DNA of 58,136 nucleotides, the filler included, from Squatina squatina (taxonomy: Eukaryota), in the NCBI GenBank assembly GCA_031763465.1. It is 2 parts of 2 records of this genome, joined end to end, with 100 filler letters (N's around TTAATTAATTAA, not from the genome) between each part and the next. Parts side by side here need not be neighbours in the genome. Positions count along the whole stretch, not along the records: positions 28,020 to 58,136 come from JARFOE010000016.1; 1 more part is not named here. One strand, written 5' to 3'. Position 1 is the stretch's first letter. The number at the start of each line of letters is the position of its first letter. The notes below the pieces were generated by a model, which was given only the letters and a program-made list of their open reading frames with translations, did not search any database and had not been told where the DNA came from. Both the position numbers and the translations under genes were made by a program. Shown piece after piece: positions 21,118 to 57,439 of the stretch.

Positions 21118-22791
21118 TCAGGATATAGTTCTGTTGTATCCACCANNNNNNNNNNNNNNNNNNNNNNNNNNNNNNNNNNNNNNNNNNNNNNNNNNNNNNN
21201 NNNNNNNNNNNNNNNNNNNNNNNNNNNNNNNNNNNNNNNNNNNNNNNNNNNNNNNNNNNNNNNNNNNNNNNNNNNNNNNNNNNNNNNNNNNNNNNNNNNN
21301 NNNNNNNNNNNNNNNNNNNNNNNNNNNNNNNNNNNNNNNNNNNNNNNNNNNNNNNNNNNNNNNNNNNNNNNNNNNNNNNNNNNNNNNNNNNNNNNNNNNN
21401 NNNNNNNNNNNNNNNNNNNNNNNNNNNNNNNNNNNNNNNNNNNNNNNNNNNNNNNNNNNNNNNNNNNNNNNNNNNNNNNNNNNNNNNNNNNNNNNNNNNN
21501 NNNNNNNNNNNNNNNNNNNNNNNNNNNNNNNNNNNNNNNNATAAACCTGTTCTCCCTGAATTGTATTGTCTCTACATCGTTGCACAAAGTCTGGAGTAAA
21601 AATTAAGTCGATATCGCAGAAGAGCAACAAACTGTCATTATGAAGTGAAGAGGAGCCCATTTCTAGGGCCAGGCCCCTGGAGAACTCTCCTTTCATAGAG
21701 AGAATGGTCATATCTGCTTTAGGATATTTAAGGTTAAGCTCTCTCATTAACTCCATGTGCTTGCCTTTATCTTGGATTGAATCAGAATTGAACAACAATA
21801 TGGATAGTTTTACATTCTGCTTTTGGATAAGGCAAGTCTTCTCAAAGTTCTCCATGAACCGGACAAATGTGTCATACCTTCCAGTGAGAGGGACTAGGAT
21901 GTGAACTTTCTGGCCACTACGTTCCTTCAGCTCTTTGGTGGTCTCTGTGAATTGGAATGGTGAGAAGATCTTCAGTGAGTTTGAGAGGAACGAGAAAGAC
22001 TGAGAGTCGCTGTTTATGCTTTCTGCAAGCTCTCTGGCATCAAGCTCTTCAGCCTCCTTCATGAATGCTTTACTAAAAGATTGTTGAATGTAGGCATGGC
22101 GTCTCACGGGAACCGTCACCTTTCTCCCCTTGTGTTTCTTATAAAGTAGCAGCAGATCCATGATGTACTCTGCTCCATGCATGGGGTTAACTCTTCGATA
22201 GCCATACTGAATTTCCTTAAATTCAATCACACGTCCTCTGGTCTTAGAGTTCCAGTTGATCATCTCCATAACCTGCATTATAGTGTCATCCAGTGCTGCA
22301 CGGAGCACACTGTTGATGCCCTGGCGAGGGATCTGTGTTTCTGCCATGCTAAAAAGGTGTTTCCCAGTCAGAAATTCCCATTCAAGGACCTCATTCCTGT
22401 CATGAGGCTGGAAACGCATAAAAGATGGCATTGTTCCAAGATGTTGATCCTCCTTGCGTACTTCCGTGTTGCTGAGCTTGCTCATAGAGACACATTCTCG
22501 ATGCAACTGAATGGTCCGATGGCGTAGTTCCGAAACTTTCCGGGTCAGCAAGTAGTTATGTAATCTATACTGATAGGCAGGTCTTTTGTTCGGATGGAGT
22601 GTTATAGCATTATGNNNNNNNNNNNNNNNNNNNNNNNNNNNNNNNNNNNNNNNNNNNNNNNNNNNNNNNNNNNNNNNNNNNNNNNNNNNNNNNNNNNNNN
22701 NNNNNNNNNNNNNNTGAATCTTACTGCTGCGCAAATCCTGAATGTATCCCTTTTTGTTGTGCTCATAATTCTCATAGAACAGCTGCTGCAT
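21118..22791 (-). CDS. CHSY3: Chondroitin sulfate synthase 3, last large coding exon (two internal gaps)
   Basis: Acceptor TTTTTTCATCTCCTCAG precedes MQQLFYENYEHNKKGYIQDL. Contains AITLHPNKRPAYQYRLHNY, KEIQYGYRRVNPMHG, SQSFSFLSNSLK, the DxD motif FCDIDL, RCRDNTIQGEQVY and the C-terminus YNRTIS*. NKRPAY, SQSFSF, TIQG and YNRT.S fit CHSY3 better than CHSY1. Confidence 0.92.
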   Translation of the reverse strand: MQQLFYENYEHNKKGYIQDLRSSKIXXXXXXXXXXXXXXXXXXXXXXXXXXXXXXXXXXHNAITLHPNKRPAYQYRLHNYLLTRKVSELRHRTIQLHRECVSMSKLSNTEVRKEDQHLGTMPSFMRFQPHDRNEVLEWEFLTGKHLFSMAETQIPRQGINSVLRAALDDTIMQVMEMINWNSKTRGRVIEFKEIQYGYRRVNPMHGAEYIMDLLLLYKKHKGRKVTVPVRRHAYIQQSFSKAFMKEAEELDARELAESINSDSQSFSFLSNSLKIFSPFQFTETTKELKERSGQKVHILVPLTGRYDTFVRFMENFEKTCLIQKQNVKLSILLFNSDSIQDKGKHMELMRELNLKYPKADMTILSMKGEFSRGLALEMGSSSLHNDSLLLFCDIDLIFTPDFVQRCRDNTIQGEQVYXXXXXXXXXXXXXXXXXXXXXXXXXXXXXXXXXXXXXXXXXXXXXXXXXXXXXXXXXXXXXXXXXXXXXXXXXXXXXXXXXXXXXXXXXXXXXXXXXXXXXXXXXXXXXXXXXXXXXXXXXXXXXXXXXXXXGGYNRTIS

Positions 22792-23899
22792 CTGAGGAGA
22801 TGAAAAAAATAAACGTTATTTTATTACTAAAGTTAAGTGCGGAACCAACATAAGAAGAAGTCAGGACACTATTATACACTTCTATTAACACAATATTTAC
22901 AACTTAAATAAATACTGCTTTAAAAGAAATGAAACAATCAAGTTCCATGCAATGACTATTTTCTCGGCAAAATTCCTGGACAGTCAGGAATAGCCTGCTG
23001 CAAACAATCTGCTAGAAGCCCATTGTGATGGTCACCTGCTGTGTGAACTTCTGCAATACTCAGTCAGACTACAGTATAAATATTATGCGGCTAAATGCTG
23101 CTGTTTTAACCAGCCCTAATCAGCATTCAGCACTAGCCCAGATGATGAGTTTGAGGATTTCTTGTGTAGCTACTTGCTAATAGACCTCACTATTGATGTG
23201 AGCAGATTGGTCCTCTGCAGAAAAGAGAAACCCAAAATGAAAAAATTCAAAGTATTGTGCCTACACTTACTTTCTCCATCTAAGAGTTGTAAAGGATTTG
23301 TTAGTTGTAATTACAATCAATATTTGCTCTGATGATGTCATTGTAACACTTTTGTACTCAATTATTTGCAGTTTCTGTTTCTAAATTAAGTAATCTTTAA
23401 TAAAAAGCTACATTTTTCTTTAGACTTGAGGGGGAAAAATAAATTTGAATAAATGTAAACCCACTTTACAGAAGACAACTTAAAGGTCATGTGGTGCCAT
23501 TCTTGCCGCCAGAGGCAAGAAAACAGAATTGACAAACTAATAATGTCTGAAGTAGATTAACAATTCTACACTGTTAGTACAGTGAAAATCAATGAGAATG
23601 GTTTAACCCAGGATGGTATTAATTGATCATTAGTTAGTCAAACCAAAAAGATAATTACATGAATACATGTGATACACTGGCTATACAGACTAGATGAACA
23701 TCTGGAGGTCAAACATGGAACTCAATTTTGACATTTGGGCAGTCGATTGGTGGAGTCCGTCAGCCGGCCTGCCTCTTGAGCCAGTGGCGAAGAGGCAGCT
23801 GCAATCATGAGGCTCCGATCTTCTTTGAATTCAGCAGGAAACTGCAGCATCCCAGTCCTTGGCCTCAGGAATTTCAGCCAGCTGGGATGCAGGCAGTGA

Positions 23900-24316
23900 C
23901 CCACAAGTAGGTCCTTGGAGGGGGAAGGCGATGCTAAGTTGGGGGCGAGGCTGGCTCGCAGCTTTCATATACAGCCAGGAGGAACACGCCTGCCCCACCA
24001 TAACACGTTAAAAATGTTCTGGCCGTTTCCTGATCGGAAGCATGAAGTGAAGCAAAGCGTGCACATCACACATTCCACCCATTTGTCCCTTAAAATTGCA
24101 ACTGGGGTCCTATAGACAGTGCAGGACCCTGATTTACACAAACAATGAACTAAACGCCTGTTTCATGCGGATGCTATGAGTGACTAAAAGCCATCCAACA
24201 TGGCGGCCACCAAACGTTGACTACAAATCAGGCACGGAAGATCGCAACCCAATTTTGTTCTACTTTTTTCTCGTTTTACGCTTGGAAAATGGGTGAAATG
24301 CGGTTGTATTTCTCCC
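23900..24316 (-). mobile_element. Possible Harbinger-type element end (TIR-like terminus and decayed 5' region)
   Basis: Ends in GTATTTCTCCC (reverse complement GGGAGAAATAC), similar to the terminus at 15490. GC-richer than its flanks. Weak support. Confidence 0.3.
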
Positions 24317-25985
24317 TGACTGGTAATGTAAAACCTTGTATCCTGTTTCACACCTTTCTAACATAAATTCTCCAACACCTCTGTTAAAATAATGGACAAA
24401 ACGTTAATATGCTAATATTGCACAGCACAATTTTAAGGCCTTTCTCTTTGTGATTCTTTTACCTCTATGGGTTAATTTCATTTTTGTTCTCCCTGTGACT
24501 GTCACTCCTGTTTCCTTTCTCCCTTTTGTTTGTGTGTTTTTTTAAAACAATTTATCATTCACTTACTCGCCTCTGTTCTTTTCTCCCAAACTGCGAGGCT
24601 CGTCCACGAAAGCAGGATGCTGGAGAAGCACATGGGAACAAGGATTAGCACAATACTGTCCTTGCAGAAGATTCCATGTTTTCAAATGCTTGAATATAGG
24701 GGGAAGCCCTCGTGAGATCAATTCAAAAGGAATATAAACTCCAGCAATTAAATTATGTTAATATCATCTTTCATTTACAATCACAGCACAGCTTAGGACA
24801 TGTTTTCCCTATGAATTTGTCCAACGCTGTCTCCCAGCACCATGTTTCCTCTTTTAACACAGTTGGATAGGTTTCCATTTAACCCCATTAATGCCCTTGT
24901 ACAGTTGGTTCATGGGAGGTGTGCTTCTAATTGTTGAGAGTCTTTCACATAGAGTTCACTATGAACAGTAGAGATGAACAGTAAATCAATTTCCAAATCC
25001 AGCTTCAGACAAATTTGGATATCCTGTGGAGAAAAAAAAATAATAATTTTGGCTCAAATCAGGCTGGGAGAATTTCCACACATTTGTGCAGTGAAATAAC
25101 ATTTTGCTCCCTCTATTTATAATTTTTGCAAATCATCATAATTGCTGAGGTGATATTCATATAACATTTCTCTCCATCGGCCCAGGATCCTGTTTGAATG
25201 ATTCTGTTTGATTCCACTGGGGACCTAACAGGAATAATTCATCCTGGTTTTGGGGATATGTCAGAGCTCTCTGGCAAACAAAGCAGGACTTACCCTCTGG
25301 TGATCTAAAAATCAGATTTTTGGACCATCTGGATTTTGCTTGTGTTTCAGAGGCAGGCTAAACGGGTGTGAAATGCTAAGAACTGATAAAACTTGCACAA
25401 GTGAACTTAAACAAGACCGGGTTCCAAGTCAAGACCCTGCGACTAGGCCACCAGTGCTTTTATGCTCAAGCTACACTGCTCATTTTCAGCCACTTATGCT
25501 ATAGTAATATTTTAGGATCTGACACAAATGAAACATATGGAAAATATCAGCTCGCTTGTGTGACCAGACTCTACTGCCTGCAGTCAGTGGTTCCTCTGAA
25601 AGTAAGAATATCACTGTGCTTAAACAGGCCCGTCCATAATGTCAGACATCATAAGTAAAATTTTCCTCTTTGTTGAACCTGAGGAATGCTCAGTTCCCAG
25701 CGCAGTGAAGAGGATACAATCTCTGTCGCCAGTATACTGACCCGTCACTCCCGGTGCCTCCCTCAGTGGGCTGTAACCGAGCCTGCTCCCACCTATATAT
25801 GACTTTCATTCCACTTCTTTTCAAGAGATTCCTGTAATAAAAACACTGAAGAAATCACACTTATAAAAATTTTAAACATAGTATCAGGAAAGAAAAAAAA
25901 ACATGAAAAAATTATGTTAATTGCACAAATTTATGCCACAATTTATGGAGGGGTAGTAATGACTTATATCACACACTGTGTCAAC

Positions 25986-26037
25986 TGTGGCTCAGTGGTA
26001 TCACTCTTGCCTCTGGGTCAGAAAGTTGTGGGTTCCA
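25986..26037 (+). mobile_element. tRNA-derived SINE head (Deu-SINE/SacSINE-like)
   Basis: A-box-like TGGCTCAGTGG and B-box-like GGGTTCCAG. Similar to the head of the SINE at 54830. Interrupted by a CR1 fragment. Confidence 0.6.
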
Positions 26038-26250
26038 GAAATGTTAGGGAACCAAGGGTCCAGTGAGAAGGAGGAATTGAAGGAAATTAGTATTAGCAAA
26101 AAATAGTCCTGGAGAAATTAATGGGACTGAAAGCCGATAAATCCCCAGGGCCTGATAATCTACATCCCAGAGGACTAAAGGAGGTGGCCATGGAAATAGT
26201 GGATGCATTGGTTGTCATCTTCCAAAATTCTATAGATTCTGGAACAGTTC
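26038..26250 (+). mobile_element. CR1 LINE ORF2 fragment (start of RT region)
   Basis: VLEKLMGLKADKSPGPDNLHPRGLKEVAMEIVDALVVIFQNSIDSGTV matches the classic CR1 'KSPGPD.LHPR.LKE' motif. Confidence 0.85.
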
Positions 26251-27056
26251 NNNNNNNNNNNNNNNNNNNNNNNNNNNNNNNNNNNNNNNNNNNNNNNNNN
26301 NNNNNNNNNNNNNNNNNNNNNNNNNNNNNNNNNNNNNNNNNNNNNNNNNNCAACTCCAGAGAGAAGCTCTTTCATTTTCCTCCCTTTCAGATGACCCAAG
26401 ATCGATTGCACTATCTGAGGGAATGCAGTGTGTGAAGGTCATCCTGCACTGGAACTGAAATCAGCGGCTCTCAAGTCTGTGATGCAATGTATTAACACAT
26501 TGCTCCTCTGAGCTTTGTAACAATTTACAGCATACTAAAATATATGGGGTTTTTGGCTTACAATGGGACCTGCAGCAAAATCAGGACCACTACAGCTTGC
26601 TGAGCATATCTTTTCACTCTTGTACATGAAATACTCTGTTCCAGTTGAGAGATTTTTATAAACAGATACCAATTGACCTCACCATTATGGTGAGATTTGA
26701 CTCTTGGATATATGAATCACTGCATGATTTTCAGAAAAAAAATTGATTGACTGCTGCAGAAGCACCACAAGGTCAGACTGGCATAAAAAGATGTTTATTG
26801 AAAGGAAGGAGAAGCTGTGTGTCAAAGACTTGGCTGAAGCCGCTTGGAGCACGGAAGACGTTACAACAAAATCACTGTTGGATGAACACATACTATGATT
26901 TGCTTTTACAGAGCTGTCAAACATCATTCAGATTAAAATTAAAATGCATATTGTTTCCAGTTGTTTTTTCTATTGCAACATACATCTGTATTGCTATGTG
27001 TGCCACCTGCTTCGCCCAAGCATTCACACGCAGCCATCTAACAACTGCCAAATCTT

Positions 27057-27097
27057 AAGACCATAAGAAATAGGAACAGGAGTAGGCTATTTGGCCC
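27057..27097 (-). mobile_element. CR1-type LINE/SINE 3' tail
   Basis: TAAGACCATAAGAAATAGGAACAGGAGTAGGCTATTTGGCCC is the reverse complement of a typical shark CR1 3' terminus. Runs into a gap. Confidence 0.6.
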
Positions 27098-27919
27098 NNN
27101 NNNNNNNNNNNNNNNNNNNNNNNNNNNNNNNNNNNNNNNNNNNNNNNNNNNNNNNNNNNNNNNNNNNNNNNNNNNNNNNNNNNNNNNNNNNNNNNNNCTC
27201 TTGCATTGCTGCACATTATATTTTTAAAAAGTATTCAATTTCAAGACTACTGCAATTAACATCCTTTTATATCACAGGTTGCTTTGCTAACACAATAAAA
27301 TTTTACAGAAATGCGATAGAAGCTGCACATATTGTAGTAAAGTTAAGTCGGCACTGGTAGGCTTAAATCTGAAAGTCAGAACATGCCAAAATAGATGCAC
27401 TAGACAGGCGTTCTCTCCCCTGGCTGCTGTAGAACTGATGTTGTGCTGCTGCAATGTTTATTCTGTGCCCACTATTAACTCACAGTCTTGGCCATCTAAG
27501 TAAGAACTAAACCATGCCAAGACAAAGTCTAAATCGTCTGGAAAAAAAGCCAGCAGTTTTTTTTCCCCTTAACATGTCTTCTTGCTTGTTGGTAGACTCC
27601 CTCCTCCGCTGCCGTGAGTCTACAGTCAGGAAGACAAACAAAGCTGCAGACTCCTTCATATCACTGATGAGAACACCACACTGTGGGGCAGCCAGAAATG
27701 GTAGAGTGAGACTCCATAACTGCCAGTGTCAGTTTTTAACCCTGGTGTCTCCTCTCCCTCCCCACAGCCCACTCGGCATTACTAGAATGTGTTATACATG
27801 TGCCCCTCTGCTGGACTTGTACGAGATGTTCAGAAATGTGGAAGACAAGCACTCTGCTACAGGTCGACAGGCTGATCACTGTAGTTGCACAGTGAAGATT
27901 TATGAATGTTTCCTGTTGC

Positions 27920-28019
27920 NNNNNNNNNNNNNNNNNNNNNNNNNNNNNNNNNNNNNNNNNNNNTTAATTAATTAANNNNNNNNNNNNNNNNNNNNNNNNN
28001 NNNNNNNNNNNNNNNNNNN
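27920..28019. other. Synthetic scaffold-joining spacer N44-TTAATTAATTAA-N44
   Basis: A palindromic 12-mer with stops in all six frames (27964-27975) is centred exactly in a 100-nt N block. Gene content changes across it. Confidence 0.93.
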
Positions 28020-28087
28020 CATGCATTAGTGAAAAATATTATTTGAAAATGACAGGACAAACTGACCAGAATGATTTTTCCATCCAG

Positions 28088-28225
28088 TTATCCAGAGACT
28101 GCCGAGCAGAGATTCAGCGAATTCTTCATCAACGAGCTTTGGATGTGAAGTTGGAGCCTGCATTACAAGAACGCTGCATAATAGACCTCGGGAAATGGTG
28201 CAGTGAAAAAACAGATCCTGGACAG
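28088..28225 (+). CDS. GLG1: Golgi glycoprotein 1 internal exon (cysteine-rich GLG1 repeat)
   Basis: TTTTTCCATCCAG|LSRDCRAEIQRILHQRALDVKLEPALQERCIIDLGKWCSEKTDPGQ|GTAATA; 138 nt, phase 0/0. Confidence 0.93.
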
Positions 28226-29043
28226 GTAATACCGGCCTGTGTGTACTCGTCTGCAGTATTACCAGGGTATATCCCACAGGGCTAAGAGTGAGAAGGTCAG
28301 AAGGGGAATGCTGCTGGGAAGAGTATGCGGCTGCAAGAGTAGCCTGACCATTGAACTGGCTCCAGTCTGGGTGCTCGGAGGAAGTGCTGTATTCACTTGA
28401 CAAAAGTAGCCGCACTGCAGCAAACTTAGTGGCTGATCCTCTGTTTCACTTCATATTTACCTTGCATATGGAGAGGAATTTAGTTTTGATTATTCTAGCA
28501 CGTGGGTAGATTGAATTACTGTCCTTTTTTGCTATTTGTTTCTGCAAGTATCCAGAGCAATCCTGAAATACTGCATCCACACACACATTGGATGCTGCCT
28601 GTCACCCTGCCATCCATGTCAGTATGCAGACAATCAAAGCAAATTCTTAGGCCGGTCAACATCACGCAAATAACGATGAAATGAAACACTCAGCCATGTC
28701 CCATTAGATTATTACGTGTCAGGAAATTATTATTTCTGTTTATTATATAAAATAGATGTGAATTTTCTTTGATGTAGCGTTCTGAAAATTATTAAACCTT
28801 TGTGCCTTGGGCTTAANNNNNNNNNNNNNNNNNNNNNNNNNNNNNNNNNNNNNNNNNNNNNNNNNNNNNNNNNNNNNNNNNNNNNNNNNNNNNNNNNNNN
28901 NNNNNNNNNNNNNNNNTATTCGTGTCCATAAAACCTTTCAGGTGCTCATCAAGCATCTATTGCCTGGTTTTCATGGTGTATAATCCTGCTTTACTTTGGG
29001 CTGAAGCTCCTCAATTAACATAGTATTACTGTTTTTCTTGTAG

Positions 29044-29211
29044 GTTGCCCCAGCAGAGGGATTTGCAGACTTAGCCTATCAAGTTATGACGTCTCCGTCC
29101 AAAAATTACCTTATGGGCTTGTTGGCGCTTGGAGTCTGCGTTCTTTTTCTACTGGGCATGACCTGTGGCAGGATCACCAAACGAGTGACACGGGAGCTGA
29201 AGGATAGGTAG
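29044..29211 (+). CDS. GLG1: Golgi glycoprotein 1 last coding exon (transmembrane helix and cytoplasmic tail)
   Basis: TTTTTCTTGTAG|VAPAEGFADLAYQVMTSPSKNYLMGLLALGVCVLFLLGMTCGRITKRVTRELKDR*. Too short to appear in the ORF track. Confidence 0.95.
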   Translation, partial: VAPAEGFADLAYQVMTSPSKNYLMGLLALGVCVLFLLGMTCGRITKRVTRELKDR

Positions 29212-31580
29212 AGCATGGCCCAAGCCTGCCTTTGTACAGCCTCTGTATAGTCTCCTTAAATAAGAGCAGCAGACGCAATCCGATCCTTTACATTTTCTCT
29301 GTTTGTTCTACACAGATTTTACCTGCAGAACAAATGTGCGAGCCAAAAGCTGCTGCTTCTGCTCCAGCAGGACTCCTCTCTTTAGTTTCCTGTAGACTTG
29401 GTTCCCATTGTGTATCTGAATCATGTTCACCCAGATCAAACGAGTCTTACTGGTAGCAGTCTCATCCAACAGAGATTCTCACCTGTCGGAAAGGTAACTG
29501 CCACAAACGGAATGATTCCAAAGAATTGTATCAGTTCAAGTAGATTGTAAGATGCTTTCAACATGTCTGCTTCCGCCTCTTGTTTTCTCTCATTTTGGNN
29601 NNNNNNNNNNNNNNNNNNNNNNNNNNNNNNNNNNNNNNNNNNNNNNNNNNNNNNNNNNNNNNNNNNNNNNNNNNNNNNNNNNNNNNNNNNNNNNNNNNTC
29701 ATTTTGGCGACTAAAAACACACTGGTCTTGCTCTCTTTTTGGAGATTATATTCTTTTCACTCTTTTAGTGATGGTGGGGAGGAGGTGGAGAAAAACTGGC
29801 TTTGGTTTTGCCTACTGAAGCCCACATTGTAAATGAAATACTGAGTGTTAGTGGTTTAAAGGGACCTGTTTGTGCAGAATGTGAGGATTGAGCCACTCTA
29901 AGGTGGCTGGAGGTATTGAGGCCAAACTTAACTCACTGTATATTTGAAGTGTTTGGCGTTACGGAAAATTGTGGTAGCTGTTTTCATCCATATGCTGTGC
30001 TTTGATGGTTTGGATTACTCGGACTGTCGGCTCCAGTTCATGGACTGATAGCACTTGGAGGTCTGTTAGATTTTTTCACTTTTTGAATTGAAGTACAAAA
30101 GGTCCGAAAGGAGACCATCCACAAAGCTCAATACCAACTTGACAGTTTACCCTGCAATCGTGTAAAAGTTACATCACTTTTTATGCCCTCTGGTGAGGCT
30201 AGGAAATGACCCTTTTCTGAATTAAGCCAAGGTTCATTACACATATCTGTAATTCTCTCTAGTGGTGCACTATTATTTCACAGCTGCATTCTGACTATGG
30301 TACTCTGGGGCGAAGGCTGACTAGTAGGAAACCAGGCAGCCTGAAATTGTTTAGTTTAATTCTAGGAGAACGAGGTAATTTCATGAGGTGCGTTTTTGCG
30401 CGCACACTATGATATGTTGCTGAATTGTGCAGTCACACTGGTGCTTACCAAGATGGCATAATGTGTACAGCATTAAACTTTTGCATATCTGTATGTTGTA
30501 AGAAATAACGCTGATTTGGAATAAAAATATATATAGAGAAGAATAATTCTGTGGCAGTATTTTTGCCAGTTTCAAAAATAATGTTCGAACAATTGCCAAA
30601 CTCTATAGTTGTTTGAAGTCCCTTTTTTAAGCTGCGAGTGTACAGCGTGGTCATTAATGCAAGGTTAATTTGCACAAAGGGAAAATTGGATTTCTCCAGT
30701 CAAGATCATTTTGGGTATGATGAATCAATTTTGAGGCACTGTGGTTTGATATCCTGTTCAGTACAACTAAATAAATACTCAGAACCTAACTGAAATGTAT
30801 TTGCAGCACATTTTCAAGTTGAAGTTTGAGAGAGGCAATGGGGAAAGAATTAACTTAGCACAATTTGCGATTACTCCAGCCAATTCCTGCAGTGCAACAT
30901 TTGAAAGTGAATTTAAAAATAATAATTCTCAGAATGCTTAACCAGATCAGTAAGCTAGTTACTTGTAATTTATATTATTATACAAGTGCCACCAGTATTC
31001 TGCTATTGTGTGGCAACAGAGTTATTTTGGTGGGTCTTAGGAGCAGCATGTTCAATGCCTCTTCCTATACGATGCAACATGAAAGAGGAAAGATGTGCTG
31101 CAGCAAATAGGTTAGTATAGGTATAGCCCTCGCTACTATCTCCNNNNNNNNNNNNNNNNNNNNNNNNNNNNNNNNNNNNNNNNNNNNNNNNNNNNNNNNN
31201 NNNNNNNNNNNNNNNNNNNNNNNNNNNNNNNNNNNNNNNNNNNCTTTTTTTTTTTAATTTCCTTTGTATTAGGGGTGTTTAAAATTTTTTAATACAGAAT
31301 ATCTGTAGTGAAATTGTGTACAGTGAGACTCCTTGGCGTCACCCTGCGTGTTGTACAGACAAGACGCGAAAAGTCGTGCGTTGTACTGCTATAGGTGTCG
31401 ATGTCACTTAGAAGTAAAATTTACAAACTGTAGGGTTTTGTAAATTTTTTTCTGTGTATAAAATCCGCTTCATGAACGTACAAGATACTTGTTCCTGATC
31501 ATGCTGTGTAATTTGAGATGTTAATGAAATCCTAACATACAGGCTCTGTGTTCTGTACAGATGAAATGGCAGAATTTATT

Positions 31581-31586
31581 AATAAA
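31581..31586 (+). promoter_or_regulatory. Candidate GLG1 polyadenylation signal
   Basis: AATAAA preceded by several TGTA motifs and followed by a T-rich tract, downstream of the GLG1 stop. Gaps intervene. Confidence 0.4.
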
Positions 31587-33032
31587 AAGGTCTGCAGGTT
31601 TTTAAACTTTGTCTTTTCCTTTTGAGTCCTGTTCATTGCTGCATTTTCCATGCCCAAGTTGAATCACGATGGATTTTGACCAGTTATCTAGGTAAGATCC
31701 CTTGTACTGAAGGGCTGCAAGTAGTAATGACAAGATAAGATAATTACAAATGAGGAAGCCCATTCGTCCCATCTTAATGTAAAGGATAAGCAGGAATTTT
31801 AGGAGTCCTGCAATATAATGCTTAAACATAAAAATAAAATGGTGACTAAGGGTACAGCAGTGTGATACCTTAAAATAAGGGAGTTTAGGAGTACAGTAAT
31901 TATGCTCCAAGGGGCAGGGTATGAAGGGTACAGCAGTGTGATGTGTTGCTATAGCAGGGTTACAGAAACACAGGAAAGCATAAAGAGTGCATCTAGTAAA
32001 TGATGGTTCTCTCCAGTAACTTCAACTGTTCATGCATTTGACAGCCACTCCTAGATTGCCTGTGTTCTGGATATTGGAGATGAAAGGATAAATACAGAAT
32101 AGTCTTTGAAATGAACTTACACCTGAAAATAATTTTTAAAATCTGGTCTGAGGCCATGATGTCTCCTTAAATAGCAATCCAGGACCTGGAGTGTGGTGCC
32201 TAATGTTTACTGAAATCCTGCTGCAGCCTTGATGTGACAGCAATTCATCTAAACAGCAAATTTATTGAAGTAATAGATCACTCAAAGTTTAAAATGTTAC
32301 ACTCATCCTACCTCATCTTAATTTGCGCAGTGGCCTGGAGCAAGCGGAATTTCTGCCCACCTCAAATGGGGCCCCAAGGTCAGAAGGGACAGGGCCAAGG
32401 GTAGGGAATTCCCTCACTGGAAATTTTCCTTGCTCAAGGCTTCCCACCACCAAACAACCAAGATGCAAGTATTAATCCAGTGTGAAAGTCAGCTTTGTTA
32501 AAACGGGGACAATAAAATTAAACAGCAAGGGGAGGAATTTGTGTGGCTGTGCCACACGTTAGTGCCAGGAGATGACGCTAAAATGCCGTTGACAGCTGTA
32601 ACGACAGCTGATGCCGGTTCCAGCGTCGCACATATCAGTGATGCCGGTAGCACTGCTGGTAACCTCAATTGTCAGGGAGCTCTCCATGATGGAGACCGTG
32701 GCATCAGTGAGTGTGCAACGCTCACTGGACTCCCGATCTCCAACATTGGGTTTAGCCACTAAACCTTGCCATTCAAATAGAAAGNNNNNNNNNNNNNNNN
32801 NNNNNNNNNNNNNNNNNNNNNNNNNNNNNNNNNNNNNNNNNNNNNNNNNNNNNNNNNNNNNNNNNNNNNNNNNNNNNNNNNNNNATATTTCTATAAAAGC
32901 ATGCATGATTGGCCCCTCGGATGTGCTTTGTATGTGTGGGGTGCGTGTGTCTGTAGGTGTGGATTATAGGTGGCCCAATCCCAGCCTGTGTGCTTCTGCT
33001 ATCTCACTGCACCCAACTGTTGGTGTTGGCAG

Positions 33033-33166
33033 GTTGGCCGCAGGAACCACGCGTCTCTGTGGCGGGATTGTAAGCACAGTCAAGCACATCAGCATAGAAA
33101 CAAAGATGGCAGACTATTCAAACAAACTTTATCAACAGTTGGCACAAGAAACTGGTGTCCAGACAG
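33033..33166 (+). CDS. PDPR: Pyruvate dehydrogenase phosphatase regulatory subunit, early internal exon
   Basis: TTGGCAG|(R)LAAGTTRLCGGIVSTVKHISIETKMADYSNKLYQQLAQETGVQT(G)|GTAAAG; FAD-binding region. Confidence 0.9.
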
Positions 33167-33469
33167 GTAAAGGCTTTCTTTCCACATTGCTTGTTTTTTT
33201 CGTGGGTTTGGTTACACAGATACCATTGCCTTCCACTGTCTGGGGAGGGGTACTTCAACAGAACCGAGTCTGGAAACAGGACTAAATGTTCACTTATCGA
33301 GGCACTTCAGTTATTTTTCTAACTGGGATACTTAAGTTCACGTAGTTAGTGTATAGTGGAGAGCTGGAGTGTGATAAACTGCTAGTTTTGGTGGGACTGG
33401 GGGTGGTCGGGTGGTAAGTTTAGCAGGATAGGTTGGATGGGTGATTGATGCATGTAAAGGACAGGTTTG

Positions 33470-33723
33470 CAATGTTTCTGTTTACCTGTGTACTTGGGGA
33501 GTGCTTACAGTGTTTCTATTGACCCTCTTTACTTGTGCACACATGTTAGTGTTCATTTACTTTGTATACATGGGGAGGAGTTAGTGTTTCTGTTTACACT
33601 GTACATGGGGAGGGGTTACAGCGTTTATTGTTTACACTGTACATGGGCAGGGGTTACAGTGTTTTTACACTGTGTACATGGGGAGGGGTTACAGTGTTTA
33701 TTGTTTACACTGTACATGGGGAA
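33470..33723. repeat. Minisatellite, ~33-38 bp unit TGTACATGGGGAGGGGTTACAGTGTTTATTGTTTACAC
   Basis: At least 4 clear copies from ~33565, with more degenerate copies to the left. Runs into a gap. Confidence 0.85.
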
Positions 33724-33849
33724 NNNNNNNNNNNNNNNNNNNNNNNNNNNNNNNNNNNNNNNNNNNNNNNNNNNNNNNNNNNNNNNNNNNNNNNNNNNNN
33801 NNNNNNNNNNNNNNNNNNNNNNNCAAGAAACCTCTTCCATGAGTCCACT

Positions 33850-34130
33850 ATCCCCTGGTGAAAGAAGAACTACCTAACCTCTAATCCAAGCCTTACCATT
33901 GGCACAGCTGCGACACATGACTCCAATCTTCCAAATCGATCAATGGGAAAGCAACATAGCCCTTTATAACTTTTTTGTAAACCTCCAGCAAAACTCCTGG
34001 ATGTCTGTGCAACTCTAAAAGTGAATACACCCAGTGTTTTAAGCTTCTCTGAGTAACTAAGGTTGTTTAAACTGGGAACCATTCTTGCACCCCTCATGGA
34101 TCCACCTGGAATTTATGCATGTGATGGTCC
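33850..34130 (-). mobile_element. CR1 LINE ORF2 C-terminal fragment
   Basis: ARMVPSLNNLSYSEKLKTLGVFTF matches the CR1 'RM.PGL..LSYEERL..LGLFSL' motif. Confidence 0.7.
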
Positions 34131-34229
34131 ATGTCAACTACTGGCCCAGAATGTATCTGCAGGTGGGTCAACTTCAGTTACCGAGTCTGTCCACTGCAAA
34201 ATAAACAGTGGTTTAGCTCTCCCGATTGC

Positions 34230-34540
34230 TTCAGGAGTGAGATACTGAGAATCATCCCAGGTTTATTTCCAAATCTGTGCTGGAGTTAGCTGATTTCAGC
34301 CAGCAATTCTGCAGTTGGCCTCGGCAATCTTGGAGGAAGGGTAACGATCAGCTTGCTCCTCATTACTATCTAGTGACTGCTGGAAAGCACAAGGGCATGA
34401 ACACTGGATGAGAGCAGGACTGGGCTTGTTTGTGATGTTTGCCAGTGGTGGTTAGCTTGACAGTGCTCAGTGTCTGGGCTCACACTTGAAAAATGACTTC
34501 TTGCGGGGAGGTGGCTGTGCCGTTGGAATTGTACCTCAAA
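34230..34540 (+). mobile_element. Decayed SINE (LF-SINE-like shark family)
   Basis: Contains GTTAGCTGATTTCAGCC...CTATCTAGTGACTGCTGGAAAG...GGGCTCACAC. A related reverse-strand copy lies at ~57440-57630. Confidence 0.45.
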
Positions 34541-34723
34541 GTGCCTTCAGACAGGGGAGTGAGGGTTGGGGGGTGGGTTGGGGAACTGGGAGAGGTTCAT
34601 GAGATTATAACTGAACACAAATTCTGTGGAGCTCGCGACTATCAGATCCCAGAGGCACGATGTTGAAGGATGAATGTGGTTGAGCTGCTCTGATTTATGA
34701 CTGTGATTGTCCTGTGTTGCCAG

Positions 34724-34916
34724 AGCCACTGCTGAGTGCGTTGCTGCGACGGATGCCGTCCCTGGAGTCAGCCGAGATCCTGCAGCTGGTGAACTGCCCA
34801 GAATCCTTCACTGCTGACATGCGATGCATCATGGGAGAGTCAGCAGCTGTACGGAACTACTTTGTTTTGGCGGGAATGAACTCCAGTGGCTCGTCCTTCG
34901 CAGGCGGAGCTGGGAA
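34724..34916 (+). CDS. PDPR: PDPR internal exon
   Basis: TTGCCAG|(E)PLLSALLRRMPSLESAEILQLVNCPESFTADMRCIMGESAAVRNYFVLAGMNSSGSSFAGGAG(K)|GTGAGT. Confidence 0.92.
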
Positions 34917-35608
34917 GTGAGTGGCTCGCCGATCCCTGGGAGGGACGCAGTTACAACCTTTGAACGGGAGTGGGTGAATCATTTCATAGCGAGCGTGGCC
35001 ATGGAGCAGAGGCGCTGGGGCACTGGGTTCGTGGGGAAAGAAAAATCAGACGATTCTTTCTTCTCTGTACTCCCCAAATGCCGTCTGCTAGGCTTATTGG
35101 GAGGTGTGAGAATTGGTACCTGTGTCTATGTCAGAGAATTGTGCGTAGCATGTGGTGGGGGGGGGATTGGTGAAAATAACTTACTCAATGGACAGCGCCC
35201 CCCGCCAAATAATTTCATATTTTCTTAAACATTACAGAGAGTTTGCATTTTGTGTTGTGCACAGTGTTAAGACTCCAGTGCTTGGTGAATTGTATATTTT
35301 ACCCTGTCAGAGACGCTGCAGAATATTTTGGTAAAACGTATAGTAGGCACCCTGCAGAGATTAGGAGGGGACTGGNNNNNNNNNNNNNNNNNNNNNNNNN
35401 NNNNNNNNNNNNNNNNNNNNNNNNNNNNNNNNNNNNNNNNNNNNNNNNNNNNNNNNNNNNNNNNNNNNNNNNNNNACAAGATAACACGGATGGTTCTGAA
35501 ATCTATTTACAAAATTACGCACCTGCTGCTGCGGGGCAGTGTGGCGCGGCTTATTACGCCTGTCTGCTTTCTGTATTTCTGGGATTAACCTCCTTTGTTT
35601 AATCATAG

Positions 35609-36013
35609 GGGACTGATTTTATTGGCCGTGAGGCGCTTTTGCAGCAAAGACAGGAGGGAGCTTGCCGTCGGTTCACCATGTTTATCCTGGATGATCATGA
35701 CACTGACCTCGACCTTTGGCCCTGGTGGGGAGAGCCTATATACAGGAATGGCCACTACGTTGGCATGACAACCAGCAGCGCCTACAGTTATACGCTGGCC
35801 CGCCACGTCTGCTTGGGCTTTGTTCACCAGTATGACGAAGACTCTGGAGCTAAACTGGTGGTGACCCCAGAGTTCGTCAATCGCGGGGACTATGAGATTG
35901 AGATTGCTGGACAGCGCTTCCGGGCGAAGGCCAAACTCTACCCGTTCAGCTCCCCATTTGCACAGAAGAGGAGGAAGGATGAGATGGAACTGAGCAGCTT
36001 TCAGGGGAAGTAA
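35609..36013 (+). CDS. PDPR: PDPR last coding exon (GcvT C-terminal barrel)
   Basis: TTTAATCATAG|GTDFIGREALLQQRQEG...FILDDHDTDLDLWPWWGEPIYRNG...TTSSAYSY...GDYEIEIAGQRFRAKAKLYP...RRKDEMELSSFQGK*. Confidence 0.95.
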   Translation, partial: GTDFIGREALLQQRQEGACRRFTMFILDDHDTDLDLWPWWGEPIYRNGHYVGMTTSSAYSYTLARHVCLGFVHQYDEDSGAKLVVTPEFVNRGDYEIEIAGQRFRAKAKLYPFSSPFAQKRRKDEMELSSFQGK

Positions 36014-46196: not shown

Positions 46197-46854
46197 GCCG
46201 GGAGGCGAGCAGAACGACGGGGATAGCAACTCCTGCATCGTTCGTATCAGTGGCGATGAGGCAGCCCACTTTCCCGGCAAGGAGGCAGACACCTCTGGTG
46301 TGCAGGTCACCGTAACTGAGCCCGCAGACCAGCCGGGTGAGACCGAAACTGAAGACCAAAAATGTCAGACCCCCAACCATAAGCAGAGAGACGGGGATGG
46401 TGGTAGTTCAGACAGCAACACCGCTTCCAGAGAATCCCTGATCAAATTCAGGATTGCTGACGGCACAATGGACAACAGCGGCGCCCCGAATAACAAATTT
46501 GTCTACAAGGCCTCAGTCATGAAGAAAGCTTCGCTGAAGAAAAAGAGGCACCTGGGTGACATGTTTGACCATGAGATTTCAGCTTTCTTCCCTGCTAACC
46601 TGGACTTCCTCTGCCTGCAGGAGGTGTTTGACAAGCGGGCGGCAGAGAAGTTGAAAGCGCAGTTGAACCCCTACTTTCAGTACATTCTCTATGATGTGGG
46701 GACGTACGCCTGGCACAGCTGCTGCAGCTTCAAGTTTTTGAACAGCGGGCTATTTTTTGCAAGTCGCTACCCAATTTTAGATGTTGAATTTCAGTGTTAT
46801 CCTAACGGGAAAGGATACGATTCGCTGGCAGCCAAGGGTGCCCTGTTTGTAAAG
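46197..46854 (+). CDS. SMPD3: Neutral sphingomyelinase 2, 3' part of the large first coding exon (5' end lost in a gap)
   Basis: Open frame from 46198: ...SCIVRISG...QTPNHKQRDGD...ASRESL...FDHEISAFFPANLDFLCLQEVFDKRAA...CCSFKFLNSGLFFASRYPI...AAKGALFVK|GTAGGC. Confidence 0.95.
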
Positions 46855-47547
46855 GTAGGCCTCGATTGGTGAAAATGTTCATTAGTCTTAAGGACAAAAG
46901 GAAACGTAGAAAATGAATGCTGTGTGTGACTGCCCATGTGAGGGAGTAACTGAGTGATACTGTCCACAGGAGAGAGTAGCCCACGGCGGTGTGTGAACAC
47001 TGTGAAGGCATGTAACCTACAGGATGTAATAAGACTAGATCCCAAATTCTGAAATCGGAACTATTTGTCATGTGCACTGTAACTGGTTCAAGCAATCAGT
47101 GTAGAAGTTTCCTTCAAGATGTAGTGAATGGTACACTTGAGGTCAAGNNNNNNNNNNAGATGACCTGTCAAAATGATGAAATTTTTATATTTTTACAGAA
47201 TAAGTTCCAACTTTGGCAGGCGAGTTTAGGGCACTGTGGAACAATGAACCCTCACATTCACTTCAAAGGCTACAACAACCTCTGAAATATTTCAGTTGTG
47301 GTATGACATCTTGGAAAGGAAGCCATGGTATCCTTCAGCATCCTGACTGCGCCTTCACTTTCCATCCATCACTCTCCCGCTGCTCTCCTGAAGCCTGTGA
47401 TGTAACTACTGGCAATCTGAAGTTGCAGAGAGGAACTTTCCTATTTTNNNNNNNNNNNNNNNNNNNNNNNNNNNNNNNNNNNNNNNNNNNNNNNNNNNNN
47501 NNNNNNNNNNNNNNNNNNNNNNNNNNNNNNNNNNNNNNNNNNNNNNN

Positions 47548-49644: not shown

Positions 49645-49947
49645 GAATGAATTTACATTTATACCGTACCTTATCACATCCCAAAGCACTTCATACAATG
49701 AATTGCAATCACTGTTGTTATAGAGGCAAATGTAGCAGACATTTTGTAGAGTCAGGTCCCACAAACAGCAATGAGACAGATGATTAAAATAAAAATAGAA
49801 GATACTGAAAGCATTCAGCAGATCAGACAGCATCTATGGAGAGAGAAACAGAGTTAATGTTTCAGGTCGCTGACCTTTAATCAGATGATTAATCTGGTGT
49901 TCTTGGTTGACGGAAGAATGTTGGCCAGAACATTTGTCCTTCGAACA
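49645..49947 (-). mobile_element. Deu-domain SINE 3' part (SacSINE/AmnSINE-like), interrupted by a Penelope-type fragment
   Basis: TTTACATTTATACCG...TCCCAAAGCACTTCA...CACTGTTGT...TCCCACAAACAGCAATGAGA, resuming after 49885 with TTGGTTGACGGAAGAATGTTGGCCAG. Confidence 0.65.
49788..49884 (-). mobile_element. Penelope-like terminal repeat fragment with a mutated hammerhead core
   Basis: Homologous to 1262-1388. The minus-strand core reads CTGATTA-A-AGGTC-AGC-GACCT-GAAAC. Flanked by CAGATGATTAA direct repeats. Confidence 0.65.
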
Positions 49948-51271: not shown

Positions 51272-52489
51272 NNNNNNNNNNNNNNNNNNNNNNNNNNNNN
51301 NNNNNNNNNNNNNNNNNNNNNNNNNNNNNNNNNNNNNNNNNNNNNNNNNNNNNNNNNNNNNNNNNNNNNNNTTACTTCTCATTTTTATCTCTCCTGGTTT
51401 TTTCCAGCCATGGAACTCTTCCAGGTGAGAGAAGGTAAAGGAAACACACAATATAAAAATGACAGCCCAAACAGTACACTGTGTACACAGTAGACTATTC
51501 ATGCACAGCACAGACAGTTAAGGCTGGACAGTATATTGTGCAGACACACTATAGAGCATATGCACAGATAGTGCACTTTGTACACACACTATAGAGTGTA
51601 CAGCTCAGTCAGGACATCAACATACTAGACTCCGTAACTGTGTCAAGTGAGCAAGTGCATTTAGTGAAAGAAGCGTTAGGACCATAATCCCCAGTGTGTA
51701 TTGATTCTGCCCGGCATTACCAAGAATTTCTGTAGTATCTTTGGCAATTACTCCTCATTCCATACCTGTTTTGTTGCAGTGTGTACCACAGAGAGTAGTC
51801 ATCATGCATCGCTGAAATATGTAGACACTCCCCCTCCTGAACAGGTAACTCCTCAGGTAAGAAGTACACACACTGCATCCAGTGATCCCGCCACTGTCAA
51901 CACAAGCAAGAAAAGCACAGTTTCAAACCAGCCTTGAACTCGAGAGCAGTCGAGTCAAACATAAAATAGGCGCAAAGACTCTATTATGAAGCAAAGTGAC
52001 AGATCAGCATTTCCAGCTGAACGTGGAAGAGTTAAATAGCATAGGAAAGTGAAAGGTGACGAAGGGCTCTCAAATAGCAAGCACTGCTTAACTGAACTCT
52101 CTCTGGATACTGTAAATCGAAAATGTGAGGACAACGGAGAACAAGTGTTGTTGCTTCCCATCGCACATGCAAAGTGAAGCACATTTTAAAACAGCCTATT
52201 CTCAAGAGTCATATTACAGTGGGTTAGAATTTTACCACTTTGTGGCTAAACACCTCCATTCACCTTACTGTTAGCAAAGCGAGGGACAACCCAAATAGTT
52301 GAGCACCCATTTTCCAGCCAGGTAGGCACTGCTCCAATTTACCAAGACCTGCAGAGCTGAGAATTCATTCTGCCATCTCTCATACTCCAGATGATGTACT
52401 TCAGGGTTGAAAGATTGCTGGAGGATTGTGCAGATCTCTGGAAGTTTGGAGAATTTAAGTCTGAAAACTAATCGGACTGTTTTTTTTCA

Positions 52490-53035
52490 ATAGCCTTATT
52501 ATTTGTGGCCTCCTTATTCTTCCTACCAAAATGTACCACCTCACACCTGTCGATATTGAAGTTAATTTGTCAATGACACGCCCATTCTGCAAGTTTATTA
52601 ATGTCTTTGTGTATTATGTCACAGTCTTCCTCAGTATTAACGAAACACCCCCAGTTTAGTGTCATCGGCAAATTTTGAAATCGTACTTTCTAAATCTCGA
52701 GTCCAAATTGTTTATGTAAATAGTGAACAGTAAATGGCGATCCCTGTGGAACACCACTTCCCAGCTTTTGCCAGTTAAGTCACTACCCTTAACCCCCAAC
52801 TCTCTGTTTTCTGTTCTGTAACCAGCTAGCTATCCATTCTGCTACTTCTCCCCTAAGCTATCTTATCAAAGCCCTTTTGAATATCCAAATATATTACATC
52901 TACTGCATTACCTTTGCCTACTCTTCAAAGAATTCAATAAGGTTGGTAAAGCACGAGCTTCCCTTTGAAATCCGTGCTGAATGTTCGTTATTATATTTTC
53001 AGTATCAGTTGCGTCTTTAAGTAAAGATTCCATTA
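52490..53035 (-). mobile_element. CR1 LINE reverse-transcriptase fragment
   Basis: The minus strand carries VIYLDIQKGFDK, SGVPQG, SKFADDTKLG and CEVVHFGRKN. Confidence 0.85.
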
Positions 53036-53036
53036 T

Positions 53037-53071
53037 GTTCTGACGAAGGGTCATCGACCTGAAACGTTAAC
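53037..53071 (+). ncRNA. Minimal type I hammerhead ribozyme motif within a Penelope-like terminal repeat (repeat extends to ~53110)
   Basis: GTT-CTGACGA-A-GGGTC-ATC-GACCT-GAAAC-GTT-AAC. It has the CUGANGA and GAAA boxes, helix II GGGUC/GACCU, a palindromic AACGUU in place of helix III, and a 3-bp helix I (GUU/AAC). Confidence 0.6.
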
Positions 53072-54487
53072 TCTGTCTTTCTCTCCACAGATGCTGCCTG
53101 ACCAGCAGGAAATTACTTTTGTGTCTGCTAAGGTCTAAACCACATTAACAAGTATCAGACAACAATTAACATGTTCAGATTACTGGAAACTTCTGTTAAT
53201 TACATAGATGTGGCCATTGTCAGTTTTAATCAATTATCCAATCTGAAGTAGATCAGAAGACAGCAGACGTTCTTTAATCAAAATGAAATGAACAAATCTC
53301 AAATTTGTCACATTTGGCTAGAACTAGGCTGGTGGAAACATATTTGGTGCAAAGCTGCTCTTACTTAAAAGGACCTGGAGAAAAGTGGCCTGAACGGAAG
53401 ACTCTGCTGTCAATCTAGAGGGAAGCTGTTGCCACCCGGTGGGGGTGGAATCTGGAGGGAAGTGGCAGCCAGTGCAAGGGACGTGGAGAGAAGCTGATGT
53501 TGCTGCTTCCGTTGTAAGAGACACTGTTGTTGTGAAAAAAAACAGGACGTCGTTGTTACTCTGAGGGACCAGAGATAGACGTTTTTGCTTGGGCAAAGCA
53601 TCTAATCAGAAGCTATTACTTCCCCAAGGACATGGAACAAAGTTATAACCATGGAAAGGAAATTTCTCAGTTGCTACCTAGACATAAACTTGAAGGAAAT
53701 TCTGAGCAAAACCTGCAGGGATGGACAGCATTGGTATGACAATGGAAGAGGGAAGCTGGTACCACTGACCTGAAAATAATATACTGCTGCATGGATTTTG
53801 AACTTGTTTAATTGAAGATATCCATTTTGGATTTGGACAATCAATTGACCATAATGATAATATATGACTAATTGTTGCTTAAAGATTTTTTTGCTGAAAG
53901 CAATTGTTTTAATATTGAATAGAGATGCATTTTTTAAAAATGGGACATTTGCTATTATTTTGTTTTATTTTTGTCACTTTGGTGACATTTTGTTTCTTAG
54001 TTGGCTTATATTTAGTGTATTTTAACAGTAATTAGGAGACTTTTATTCAGCTGACAAACTAATGGAATATAGCTACAAAATGCTGCTTAAATATTGTTAG
54101 GTCTAGTATCTGTCATACTAAAATAATGCCAGTAAAGATGTTATGATGTAATAATTTAACTTTATATTATCTATTTTCTCTGTCTACGCAAGATTATAAT
54201 AGGAATACAAAGCTACTAAATATCTAGAATTAGTATCTCAGTGACATGCAAACTGTTATATTGCACTATGCAATTTAATATTTGTAACTCGGAAAATAGC
54301 ATTTATAAATGTTATTTTGTGATGCATACATACATTTGTCAGCTTGATGAGTTTAGGCTTAAACGGTCAGGTGGATATGATTTTTAAAAGTTGCAAGCTG
54401 TTTTTCACAAGATTGTTATTATTGTTTTCTAGCTGTCAGAATGGGGGGACTGATTCATACAAATCACCAACCCTCTTCCCCAAGTCC

Positions 54488-54685
54488 TCCTTTTATCTCT
54501 TTTACAAAGTATTCTTTAGGTTCAATACTATATACGCTGACTTCTACCCTATCTACTGCTCCTCATCCAGATACATTTCCTAACTCAATATCTTCCTCTT
54601 CAATTAACTTAGTGAGAGATGATACTAATTCTTCACCTCTATTTAATCTAACTACATACTTATCTCCAAATCTTCTGTATTCCAT
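54488..54685 (-). pseudogene. Bacterial-type PPC domain (DUF296) gene, 5' fragment with an in-frame TGA
   Basis: MEYRRFGDKYVVRLNRGEELVSSLTKLIEEEDIELGNVSG*GAVDRVEVSVYSIEPKEYFVKEIKG resembles the N-terminal half of prokaryotic DUF296 proteins. Codons are strongly A/T-ending (AGA, GGA, TTA, GTA). No introns. Confidence 0.78.
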
Positions 54686-54829
54686 ATTNNNNNNNNNNNN
54701 NNNNNNNNNNNNNNNNNNNNNNNNNNNNNNNNNNNNNNNNNNNNNNNNNNNNNNNNNNNNNNNNNNNNNNNNNNNNNNNNNNNNNNNNCAGCCAAACAGG
54801 CACGATTCATGTCTCAGCCTAGATGAAGG

Positions 54830-55233: not shown

Positions 55234-55414
55234 CTGAATATTATTTGGAGTTGGATGGGCCCAGTATGGTGCCATGGTACATTTGATACACCCTTCAGGG
55301 TCCATGTCCATGTCCCACCAGGACAGTACAACCTGGGCCTGTCCACTGCCAGTTGCTCGGACCTGCACAGTGTGTTGTGCCGGAGAACTGCTCACTGCTT
55401 TACTGAAATCCACT
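55234..55414 (-). CDS. PRMT7: Protein arginine N-methyltransferase 7 internal exon
   Basis: [60 protein letters not shown]|GTAAGG. The acceptor AG (55415-55416) lies at the contig edge, so the 5' boundary is tentative. Confidence 0.9.
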
Positions 55415-57439
55415 CTNNNNNNNNNNNNNNNNNNNNNNNNNNNNNNNNNNNNNNNNNNNNNNNNNNNNNNNNNNNNNNNNNNNNNNNNNNNNNNNNNNNN
55501 NNNNNNNNNNNNNNNNGGATGAACTGCTCCATCTATCAGTAGGAAGGAAAGTCTGTTGTTGAATGTACACTTGTGATTCATGAGAAGATGGATGACCTGA
55601 GCACAGGTAGAAACGATGAGCCCTCTTGAACAGGAAATGCTATAGGACATTTAGCCTTTGCCGTGATTGGAATGTCTAAAGAGTGAAATGAATATGTCTG
55701 GGGAAGGTGGAGAGTTGACGTAATTTAAGTCGATCAGCAGAGGCTTCAATTTGCCCTTATTATGGAGTAGATTGATCTTTCTTGAGTAACCTTGACTTTA
55801 AACAACATCCACGTGTGTTGGGTACAACAGTCTGGAATCTCACAGTTTACAGGAAGACAATGCGAAGTATCACAACACACATCACACATCACGCATCACG
55901 CATCCCTGCTACTGGTCCAGAGTCAAAACATTGATTACAATTCAAAATACATCCTTCTCATTGTTCAGCATTAAACTATACAGGCACTCCCTGTACATTT
56001 TGTTAAAATTACAAAATGCATTATTTACAGATTTGTACACACAGTGTAAACACAAAATTTGTCTATTTATTACAAGTTGCNNNNNNNNNNNNNNNNNNNN
56101 NNNNNNAGTCACGGCTAAAAGAGATTTAGTTAATTAAAAAAAGAAAAGCACTAAGCACTCACTATTTTGACGAGGGAACAGCCCGAGTACCTTCACATCT
56201 TCCTATGAATGAACAGAGCTCTCGAGAATACTGCAAAGAGCAGGAGTCTCCACACTGAGCATGTGCAGTGTGCAACCTCTCCCGTGGACTGACAAAATCG
56301 GCCAATGGCCAGCGCTTTGCTGGGGGTGTGCAGTTCAGTCATTTGAAATAGCGCTGAGAGATGAGGAAACGAAGCGCGTTGAAGATATGTCTTTGGCATC
56401 AAAATAATAACATGCAATTCAAGACATGGCAGAGAGGATTGCATTTCAACCCAATATAGTGCGGTGAAGTGAATAAATCACTACTCCCCGTTCCCCAACC
56501 CCTCCCCCCAACGAGCAGCGGGACCGGCTGTGTGCATGGACTGGACTCCTCTCCACACCCCAGTCTCACCCGATTAGCTGGCACTATACCCTGACACTCC
56601 TCAGTGGATTAAACACATTAATCAAGTAATTAAAGTGTATGTAGTGCAAATGATATAACCATTTCTATAAAAACATGCTACTGTCTAAGCTACAGAGATA
56701 GGCTATGCCTGAACTTGCGGACAAACTTCTGTCTCTGCATACTGTGCTGGGACACAGAAATATGAGTGTATGNNNNNNNNNNNNNNNNNNNNNNNNNNNN
56801 NNNNNNNNNNNNNNNNNNNNNNNNNNNNNNNNNNNNNNNNNNNNNNNNNNNNNNNNNNNNNNNNNNNNNNNNNNNNNNNNNNNNNNNNNNNNNNNNNNNN
56901 NNNNNNNNNNNNNNNNNNNNNNNNNNNNNNNNNNNNNNNNNNNNNNNNNNNNNNNNNNNNNNNNNNNNNNNNNNNNNNNNNNNNNNNNNNNNNNNNNNNN
57001 NNNNNNNNNNNNNNNNNNNNNNNNNNNNNNNNNNNNNNNNNNNNNNNNNNNNNNNNNNNNNNNNNNNNNNNNNNNNNNNNNNNNNNNNNNNNNNNNNNNN
57101 NNNNNNNNNNNNNNNNNNNNNNNNNNNNNNNNNNNNNNNNNNNNNNNNNNNNNNNNNNNNNNNNNNNNNNNNNNNNNNNNNNNNNNNNNNNNNNNNNNNN
57201 NNNNNNNNNNNNGTTACCGATGCTATGTGGTTGTTCTGCATGACCTGCAAAAGGAGACACAGGAACATTTAATGATCTCAAAGACTATATTCACACACAT
57301 ATGCCTGCACGCACACACAAGAAACAAGTGTGTGTATGTGCATACATGTGTGCATAGACACATACACATGTGCACGCACACAATAGTCTCCCCTTTGCTA
57401 TTTTCTCCTCGATGGGCTGGCACATGGTCTCATGAGTGT

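Follow-up and report, generated by a model that had tools for sequence, protein, structure and literature searches.

Does a fragment of a bacterial-type gene at the end of a shark contig record the entry of bacterial DNA into a vertebrate genome, or did it reach the assembly by another route? The fragment lies in a 58,136-nt stretch of the Squatina squatina assembly GCA_031763465.1 (the whole stretch that was analysed, hereafter the window) and is interrupted by a nonsense codon. The original prediction, made from the sequence alone, had offered two readings, i.e., a bacteria-to-vertebrate insertion in decay or the chimeric end of a contig. Below, we compare the fragment with its bacterial relatives, the contig with shark DNA, and the junction between the two with what each reading would lead one to expect; the coordinates are collected in Table 1.

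The fragment and its bacterial relatives

The minus-strand frame of 66 codons with an internal stop, as described originally, was recovered here from an ATG at 54685, with TGA as codon 41. When X was placed at the stop, the frame matched PF03479 (PPC/DUF296) at 40.5 bits (E 4e-10, profile positions 2-59 of 117), which is far above the chance level (the Pfam gathering cut-off for this family is 25 bits) and upholds the earlier family assignment; the 41 aa ahead of the stop, scored alone, gave 21.5 bits, below that cut-off. The bacterial part is shorter than the span of 54464-54688 first proposed, since comparison with the closest genome and with contigs from public runs (below) places its inner limit at 54487. 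It is 202 nt long and terminates exactly at the contig edge, where it abuts a 100-N gap, in agreement with the position originally given for it.

A protein search among longer proteins returned six relatives from 86 candidates (top identity, 92%), and a scan of GTDB genomes with the top relative returned 59 loci, the best of which (L001) belongs to Tissierellaceae bacterium HCP3S3_D8 (JBQHQH010000003.1, taxid 3438948), the next species (L002) being 79% identical. Hence, the search for a donor taxon that the original prediction had proposed leads to the Tissierellaceae, with HCP3S3_D8 as the best match. The fragment and L001 agree at 193 of 198 coding bases and 62 of 66 residues, and are identical in the 3 nt preceding the ATG; third codon positions match at 65/66 sites, vs. 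35/66 for L002. Counted from the contig end, the fragment is identical to L001 for 124 bases, and all five differences are found farther in: besides the TGA base, three of them are replacements and one is silent. Two other proteins (P0009 and P0010) have the F60, or the E58 and F60, of the window. The gene in L001 is an intact 140-aa frame with other bacterial genes around it, and its product matches, by sequence, solved PPC structures (PDB 2dt4 [PH0802], 2h6l, and 3htn) with E values of about 1e-20. Judged from these comparisons, the fragment represents the 5' portion of a gene in a Tissierellaceae species that is alive today. In the surrounding region of L001 (1113-5082), the DUF296 gene is located downstream of sugar-kinase-like and pseudouridine-glycosidase-like genes and upstream of racemase-like and NAD(P)H-hydrate-dehydratase-like frames, names that are our guesses from motifs.

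Public sequencing runs place the fragment more closely still. Our search listed 24 runs, 20 of which contain part of the stretch and none of which contains half its words, and four of the 24 were compared with the window over 53700-54688. Coverage in all four was restricted to the bacterial part, starting at 54487 in three runs and at 54539 in the other. A 10,642-nt contig of run X15 (depth, 22.7) is identical to 54487-54688 at 201 of the 202 bases, the sole difference being base 54564, that is, the TGA base; the other runs differ at two sites (X17), four sites (X1; two of these listed), and two sites over 150 nt (X12), and all four runs have the intact (TTA) letter at 54564. Since X15 matches the window everywhere but at this base, the other four differences to L001 represent ordinary strain variation, and the haplotype of the window falls within the present-day strain diversity of a living species. 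The sequences of X15 and X1 go on past 54487 as bacterial gene. The host side of the junction was touched by none of the four compared runs, none being a run of this shark, and therefore none of them is the source of the window. The habitat labels of the other listed runs (digester, food fermentation, bird and chicken gut, soil, and others) are based on small shares and carry no weight in our argument. Exact pattern scans of JGI metagenome contigs gave no match to a junction-spanning pattern and likewise none to a pattern from the bacterial part, which makes the former blank uninformative.

Table 1. Features of the fragment and its surroundings (window positions; a dot marks features without a strand)
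Feature	Position	Strand	Evidence or remark
PRMT7-type exon in the same contig as the fragment	51766..51893	-	PF22528, E 1.3e-7, profile 115-163; AG/GT ends
Decayed CR1-type reverse-transcriptase remnant (presumed family), approximate limits	52470..52990	-	Motifs by eye in read-through frames
Host repeat	53039..53103	.	Two further copies in the window, 1325-1388 and 49823-49885 (92% and 86% identity)
Non-coding flank, most likely shark intron	53104..54486	.	No protein-family, phage, plasmid or convincing donor-family match
Junction	54477..54486	-	Host-side bases match the bacterial continuation at 7/9, with a 1-nt offset (imperfect microhomology)
Bacterial DNA: 3 nt upstream, codons 1-66 and one base of a PPC/DUF296 gene start	54487..54688	-	BLASTN E 6e-94 to L001; 201/202 identity to the X15 contig; PF03479
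TGA codon 41	54563..54565	-	TTA (Leu) in 4/4 runs and L001; base 54564 is 125 nt from the contig end
Scaffold gap of 100 N directly after the fragment	54689..54788	.	No second junction in the assembly
Preceding PRMT7-type exon, 5' limit undefined	55234..55416	-	PF22528, E 3.2e-6, profile 73-115; GT donor at 55233

The nonsense codon and the proposed old transfer

The TGA occupies a site that reads TTA in every strain compared and encodes Leu or Ile in the other relatives of the alignment, just as the original prediction had stated for this position. For the same reason, we rejected recoding of the TGA, whether as selenocysteine or under another genetic code. The further step of taking the stop as a sign of decay did not hold, given that a living bacterium is 201/202 identical with an uninterrupted codon and that a read error fits equally well. 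Across the 66 codons, 44 of the 594 possible single changes create a stop, and errors and neutral mutations have equal odds of making one, so the TGA is weak evidence of decay. It likely arose through one error, in a read or during PCR; base 54564 would come late in a 150-nt read, had one begun at the contig end. A natural nonsense allele, found in none of the five DNA sequences compared (four runs and L001), may nevertheless have been carried by the contaminating strain.

These comparisons bear directly on the hypothesis of an old transfer, according to which bacterial DNA entered the shark genome long ago and is now in decay, the TGA being a mutation acquired in the host. That the stop is one change away from TTA fits this hypothesis, and the slow mutation of sharks, 7e-10 per base per generation (PMC10587355), could keep an insert near its original sequence. 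At that rate, however, only ~1.4e-7 changes per generation are expected in 202 nt (our hand arithmetic), that is, one change per ~7 million generations; for the chance of a change to reach just 5%, ~360,000 generations must pass. The bacterial line would have to hold the 201 other sites fixed over the same time, whereas living strains differ from the window at up to four of these sites. With 201 sites unchanged relative to a living strain and millions of generations needed, the idea of an old transfer in decay is, in effect, refuted, and we give this part of the original prediction practically no credence. The literature matches listed by our search included no report of bacterial transfer into shark genomes, which by itself does not prove that there is none.

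The shark contig and the junction

The contig that carries the fragment (51372-54688) is host DNA, as indicated by a PRMT7-type exon, a CR1-like remnant, and a repeat with other copies in the window. The two PRMT7-type exons match adjoining segments of the PRMT_C profile (73-115 and 115-163, in this order), are in phase, and have GT/AG ends; we take the gene to be PRMT7 based on the PF22528 matches, sequence motifs, and its SMPD3 neighbour. As these exons flank the fragment, its placement between SMPD3 and PRMT7, as originally described, gives way to one that, as scaffolded and as far as the exon matches tell, is inside an intron of the shark PRMT7. The SMPD3 exon (46198-46857) shows 93% identity to Heptranchias and Scyliorhinus, 85% to a ray, and at most 75% to the listed tetrapods; being closest to sharks, it identifies the host as a shark. 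The CR1 repeat noted earlier can be seen by eye from its motifs, which suggest the family name, but the remnant gave no Pfam match.

Between the host repeat and the junction, the flank gave nothing below E 0.04 in Pfam or NCBIfam, and 53100-54688 had no match in phage and plasmid collections, so that no mobile carrier is indicated. We rejected the idea that the flank is further donor DNA because the 81 donor-family genomes searched yielded no convincing match, only three weak, AT-rich ones of 33-73 nt (E from 1e-4 to 7e-4). A third-order Markov score was -0.015, i.e., on the host side, for the 200 nt beside the junction, and +0.069, on the bacterial side, for the fragment; one AT-rich 200-nt bin of the flank (53772-53971) scored 0.047, slightly over the host maximum of 0.036. 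Overall, the 1.4 kb to the left of the junction are probably shark.

Nor did the rest of the window contain any other part that matched the donor or two of its relatives. The scan against Pfam covered 209 of the 693 open frames with 38 aa or more (97 at contig ends, 105 of at least 70 aa, and seven more in the contig of the fragment), and these gave no bacterial-type match besides the fragment, the other matches being to host genes or a retroelement. An intronless HIT-domain frame (9857-10306; PF01230, E 3e-19) within a 221-aa open frame, apparently HINT1-like, is likely a processed retrocopy. Further, exons of a chondroitin GalNAc-transferase-family gene (21541-22614, minus strand), a GLG1-like Cys-rich repeat (28022-28282), and a PDPR-like gene (34684-36010), all named here tentatively, are close together within 21541-36010, with most of their exons apparently missing.

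The window consists of 49 pieces with a median length of 951 nt (longest, 3536), mostly joined by 100 N; only one exon of SMPD3 was found in it, and the single exons of neighbouring genes are packed closely. We infer a low-coverage assembly that was ordered on a reference; very few molecules would then support its contig ends. Two runs of 44 N at 27920-28019 enclose a 12-nt 'contig' of A and T only (100 nt in total), presumably an artificial stop-codon spacer from a scaffolding step. At 29590-29707, the contigs flanking a 100-N gap overlap by 9 nt, the sole overlap of at least 5 nt among 48 gaps, and the true length of this gap is probably zero or negative.

At the junction itself, host-side bases resemble the bacterial continuation (Table 1), and similarity of this grade is reached at 617 of 104,390 window positions (0.6%) by a criterion that was set after the junction had been seen. 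Repeats of 11-12 nt common to the flank and the fragment were taken as chance in AT-rich DNA. Microhomology is also reported at the junctions of real integrations (PMC10025437). Accordingly, microhomology suits template switching or end-annealing in a library but also marks real integrations, and the junction does not decide between the two.

As a variant of the contamination reading, it is possible, though rather unlikely, that the join was made by software, i.e., that an assembler, gap filler or extender attached contaminant reads through a short overlap without any chimeric molecule. The heavy processing of the scaffold, with its 100-N gaps and artificial spacer, and the partial similarity at the junction are consistent with such a misjoin. 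On the other hand, the visible similarity is just 7/9 with an offset, far short of the usual k-mer overlaps, although the true host continuation past 54486 might conceal a longer one.

A genuine but very recent insertion, either a germline polymorphism or somatic, would have placed Tissierellaceae DNA in the PRMT7 intron during microhomology-guided repair of a double-strand break. The ungapped join to the host contig, the imperfect microhomology, and the neutral, intronic position would all be compatible with such an event, and somatic bacterial integration has reportedly been claimed in humans. We nonetheless regard it as very improbable: the fragment is terminal and has no second junction, the TGA demands a separate error or mutation, and the donor, an anaerobe, belongs to a group that proliferates as fish decay. 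Such events are also rare relative to contamination, to judge from the tardigrade case (PMC8862208).

Probable contamination and its meaning

We are therefore left with contamination, and consider it highly likely that the 202 bases are contaminant DNA from the shark sample that was joined to the end of a low-coverage contig; within this reading, a chimeric library molecule is the probable form of the join. That is, the chimeric contig end that the original prediction had named as its second possibility is favored by the 201/202 identity to a living strain, the single junction, and the terminal position. The span is short, foreign, located at a contig end, and near-identical to a living microbe, as is terminal assembly contamination. 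A transfer, by comparison, would have host DNA on both sides and a divergence from the donor that fits residence in the host, whereas the fragment has one junction, its other end being the contig end, and is 201/202 identical to a living strain. A near-identical, intact bacterial gene had also been named in advance as evidence against transfer; such a gene is present in a public run, the original wording having referred to the shark's own read set.

Under the contamination hypothesis, bacterial DNA would have been present in the tissue or extract, possibly through post-mortem growth, and either ligation or a template switch at the imperfect microhomology would have linked a bacterial to a shark fragment in vitro. 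Subsequently, the assembler may have extended a thin contig through the chimeric molecule and halted at the end of that molecule, and the extended contig would have been ordered into place at PRMT7, next to a gap of 100 N; one read or PCR error would have given rise to the TGA. What counts against contamination is the support that it needs, since 202 nt exceed a 150-nt read, so that two or more such reads, a merged pair, or reads of greater length must have covered them. Post-mortem growth is a plausible source of the contaminant by analogy with drying fermented shark meat, where Tissierella is reported to become dominant, at 11-19% of the community (PMC10700383), and with decaying fish, where the Peptostreptococcales-Tissierellales are reported to increase from 1% to 30% (PMC13128626), the cited decay data being for the genus and the order rather than for this species.

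The closest parallels are cases of contamination as well. According to PMC10898089, the NCBI screen classes terminal inter-kingdom spans as contamination, and chimeras are frequent at contig ends and under-reported if the species is missing from the database; the false HGT of the tardigrade is treated as the standard warning case (PMC8862208). Like the 'TRIM' class of FCS-GX and the tardigrade case described in these sources, the window has a short prokaryotic span at a contig end that is near-identical to a living bacterium. There is no difference in kind from such terminal cases, although here the contig end has become enclosed in a scaffold, and screening databases may have lacked the donor.

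With respect to PPC proteins, the stand-alone prokaryotic forms are described as single-domain proteins of ~120 aa that were reported as trimers (PMC4209074). The donor protein matches this form, whereas the fragment lacks the C-terminal half, including a His-rich stretch that is conserved in the relatives; that is, the HCP3S3_D8 gene is intact, and the window has codons 1-66 only, with less than the complete ~120-aa domain in an open frame. The plant AHL proteins, which combine an AT-hook with PPC (PMC4209074), have the PPC domain in common with the fragment but, unlike them, the fragment has no AT-hook or spliced context and is 99.5% identical to a bacterium. In AHL proteins the AT-hook is N-terminal to PPC, while here the bacterial ATG is preceded by three bacterial bases, and profile searches of the fragment and of the frames in its contig gave no match to an AT-hook family. 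Hence, the fragment derives from an ordinary prokaryotic stand-alone PPC gene and is not a functional member of the family. In the shark it would be inert, with less than half of the domain, a stop at codon 41, and neither the promoter nor the ribosome-binding region of the donor.

In conclusion, the fragment is most likely of no biological consequence, being part of an ordinary gene in what is most likely an artificial join. It flags leftover bacterial contamination at the contig ends of a fragmented shark assembly; the span merits trimming, and similar calls of bacterial fragments in host DNA from the same assembly deserve distrust. If it were a true insertion after all, it would represent a rare and datable entry of bacterial DNA into a vertebrate genome, caught before any decay, and it would still be non-functional.
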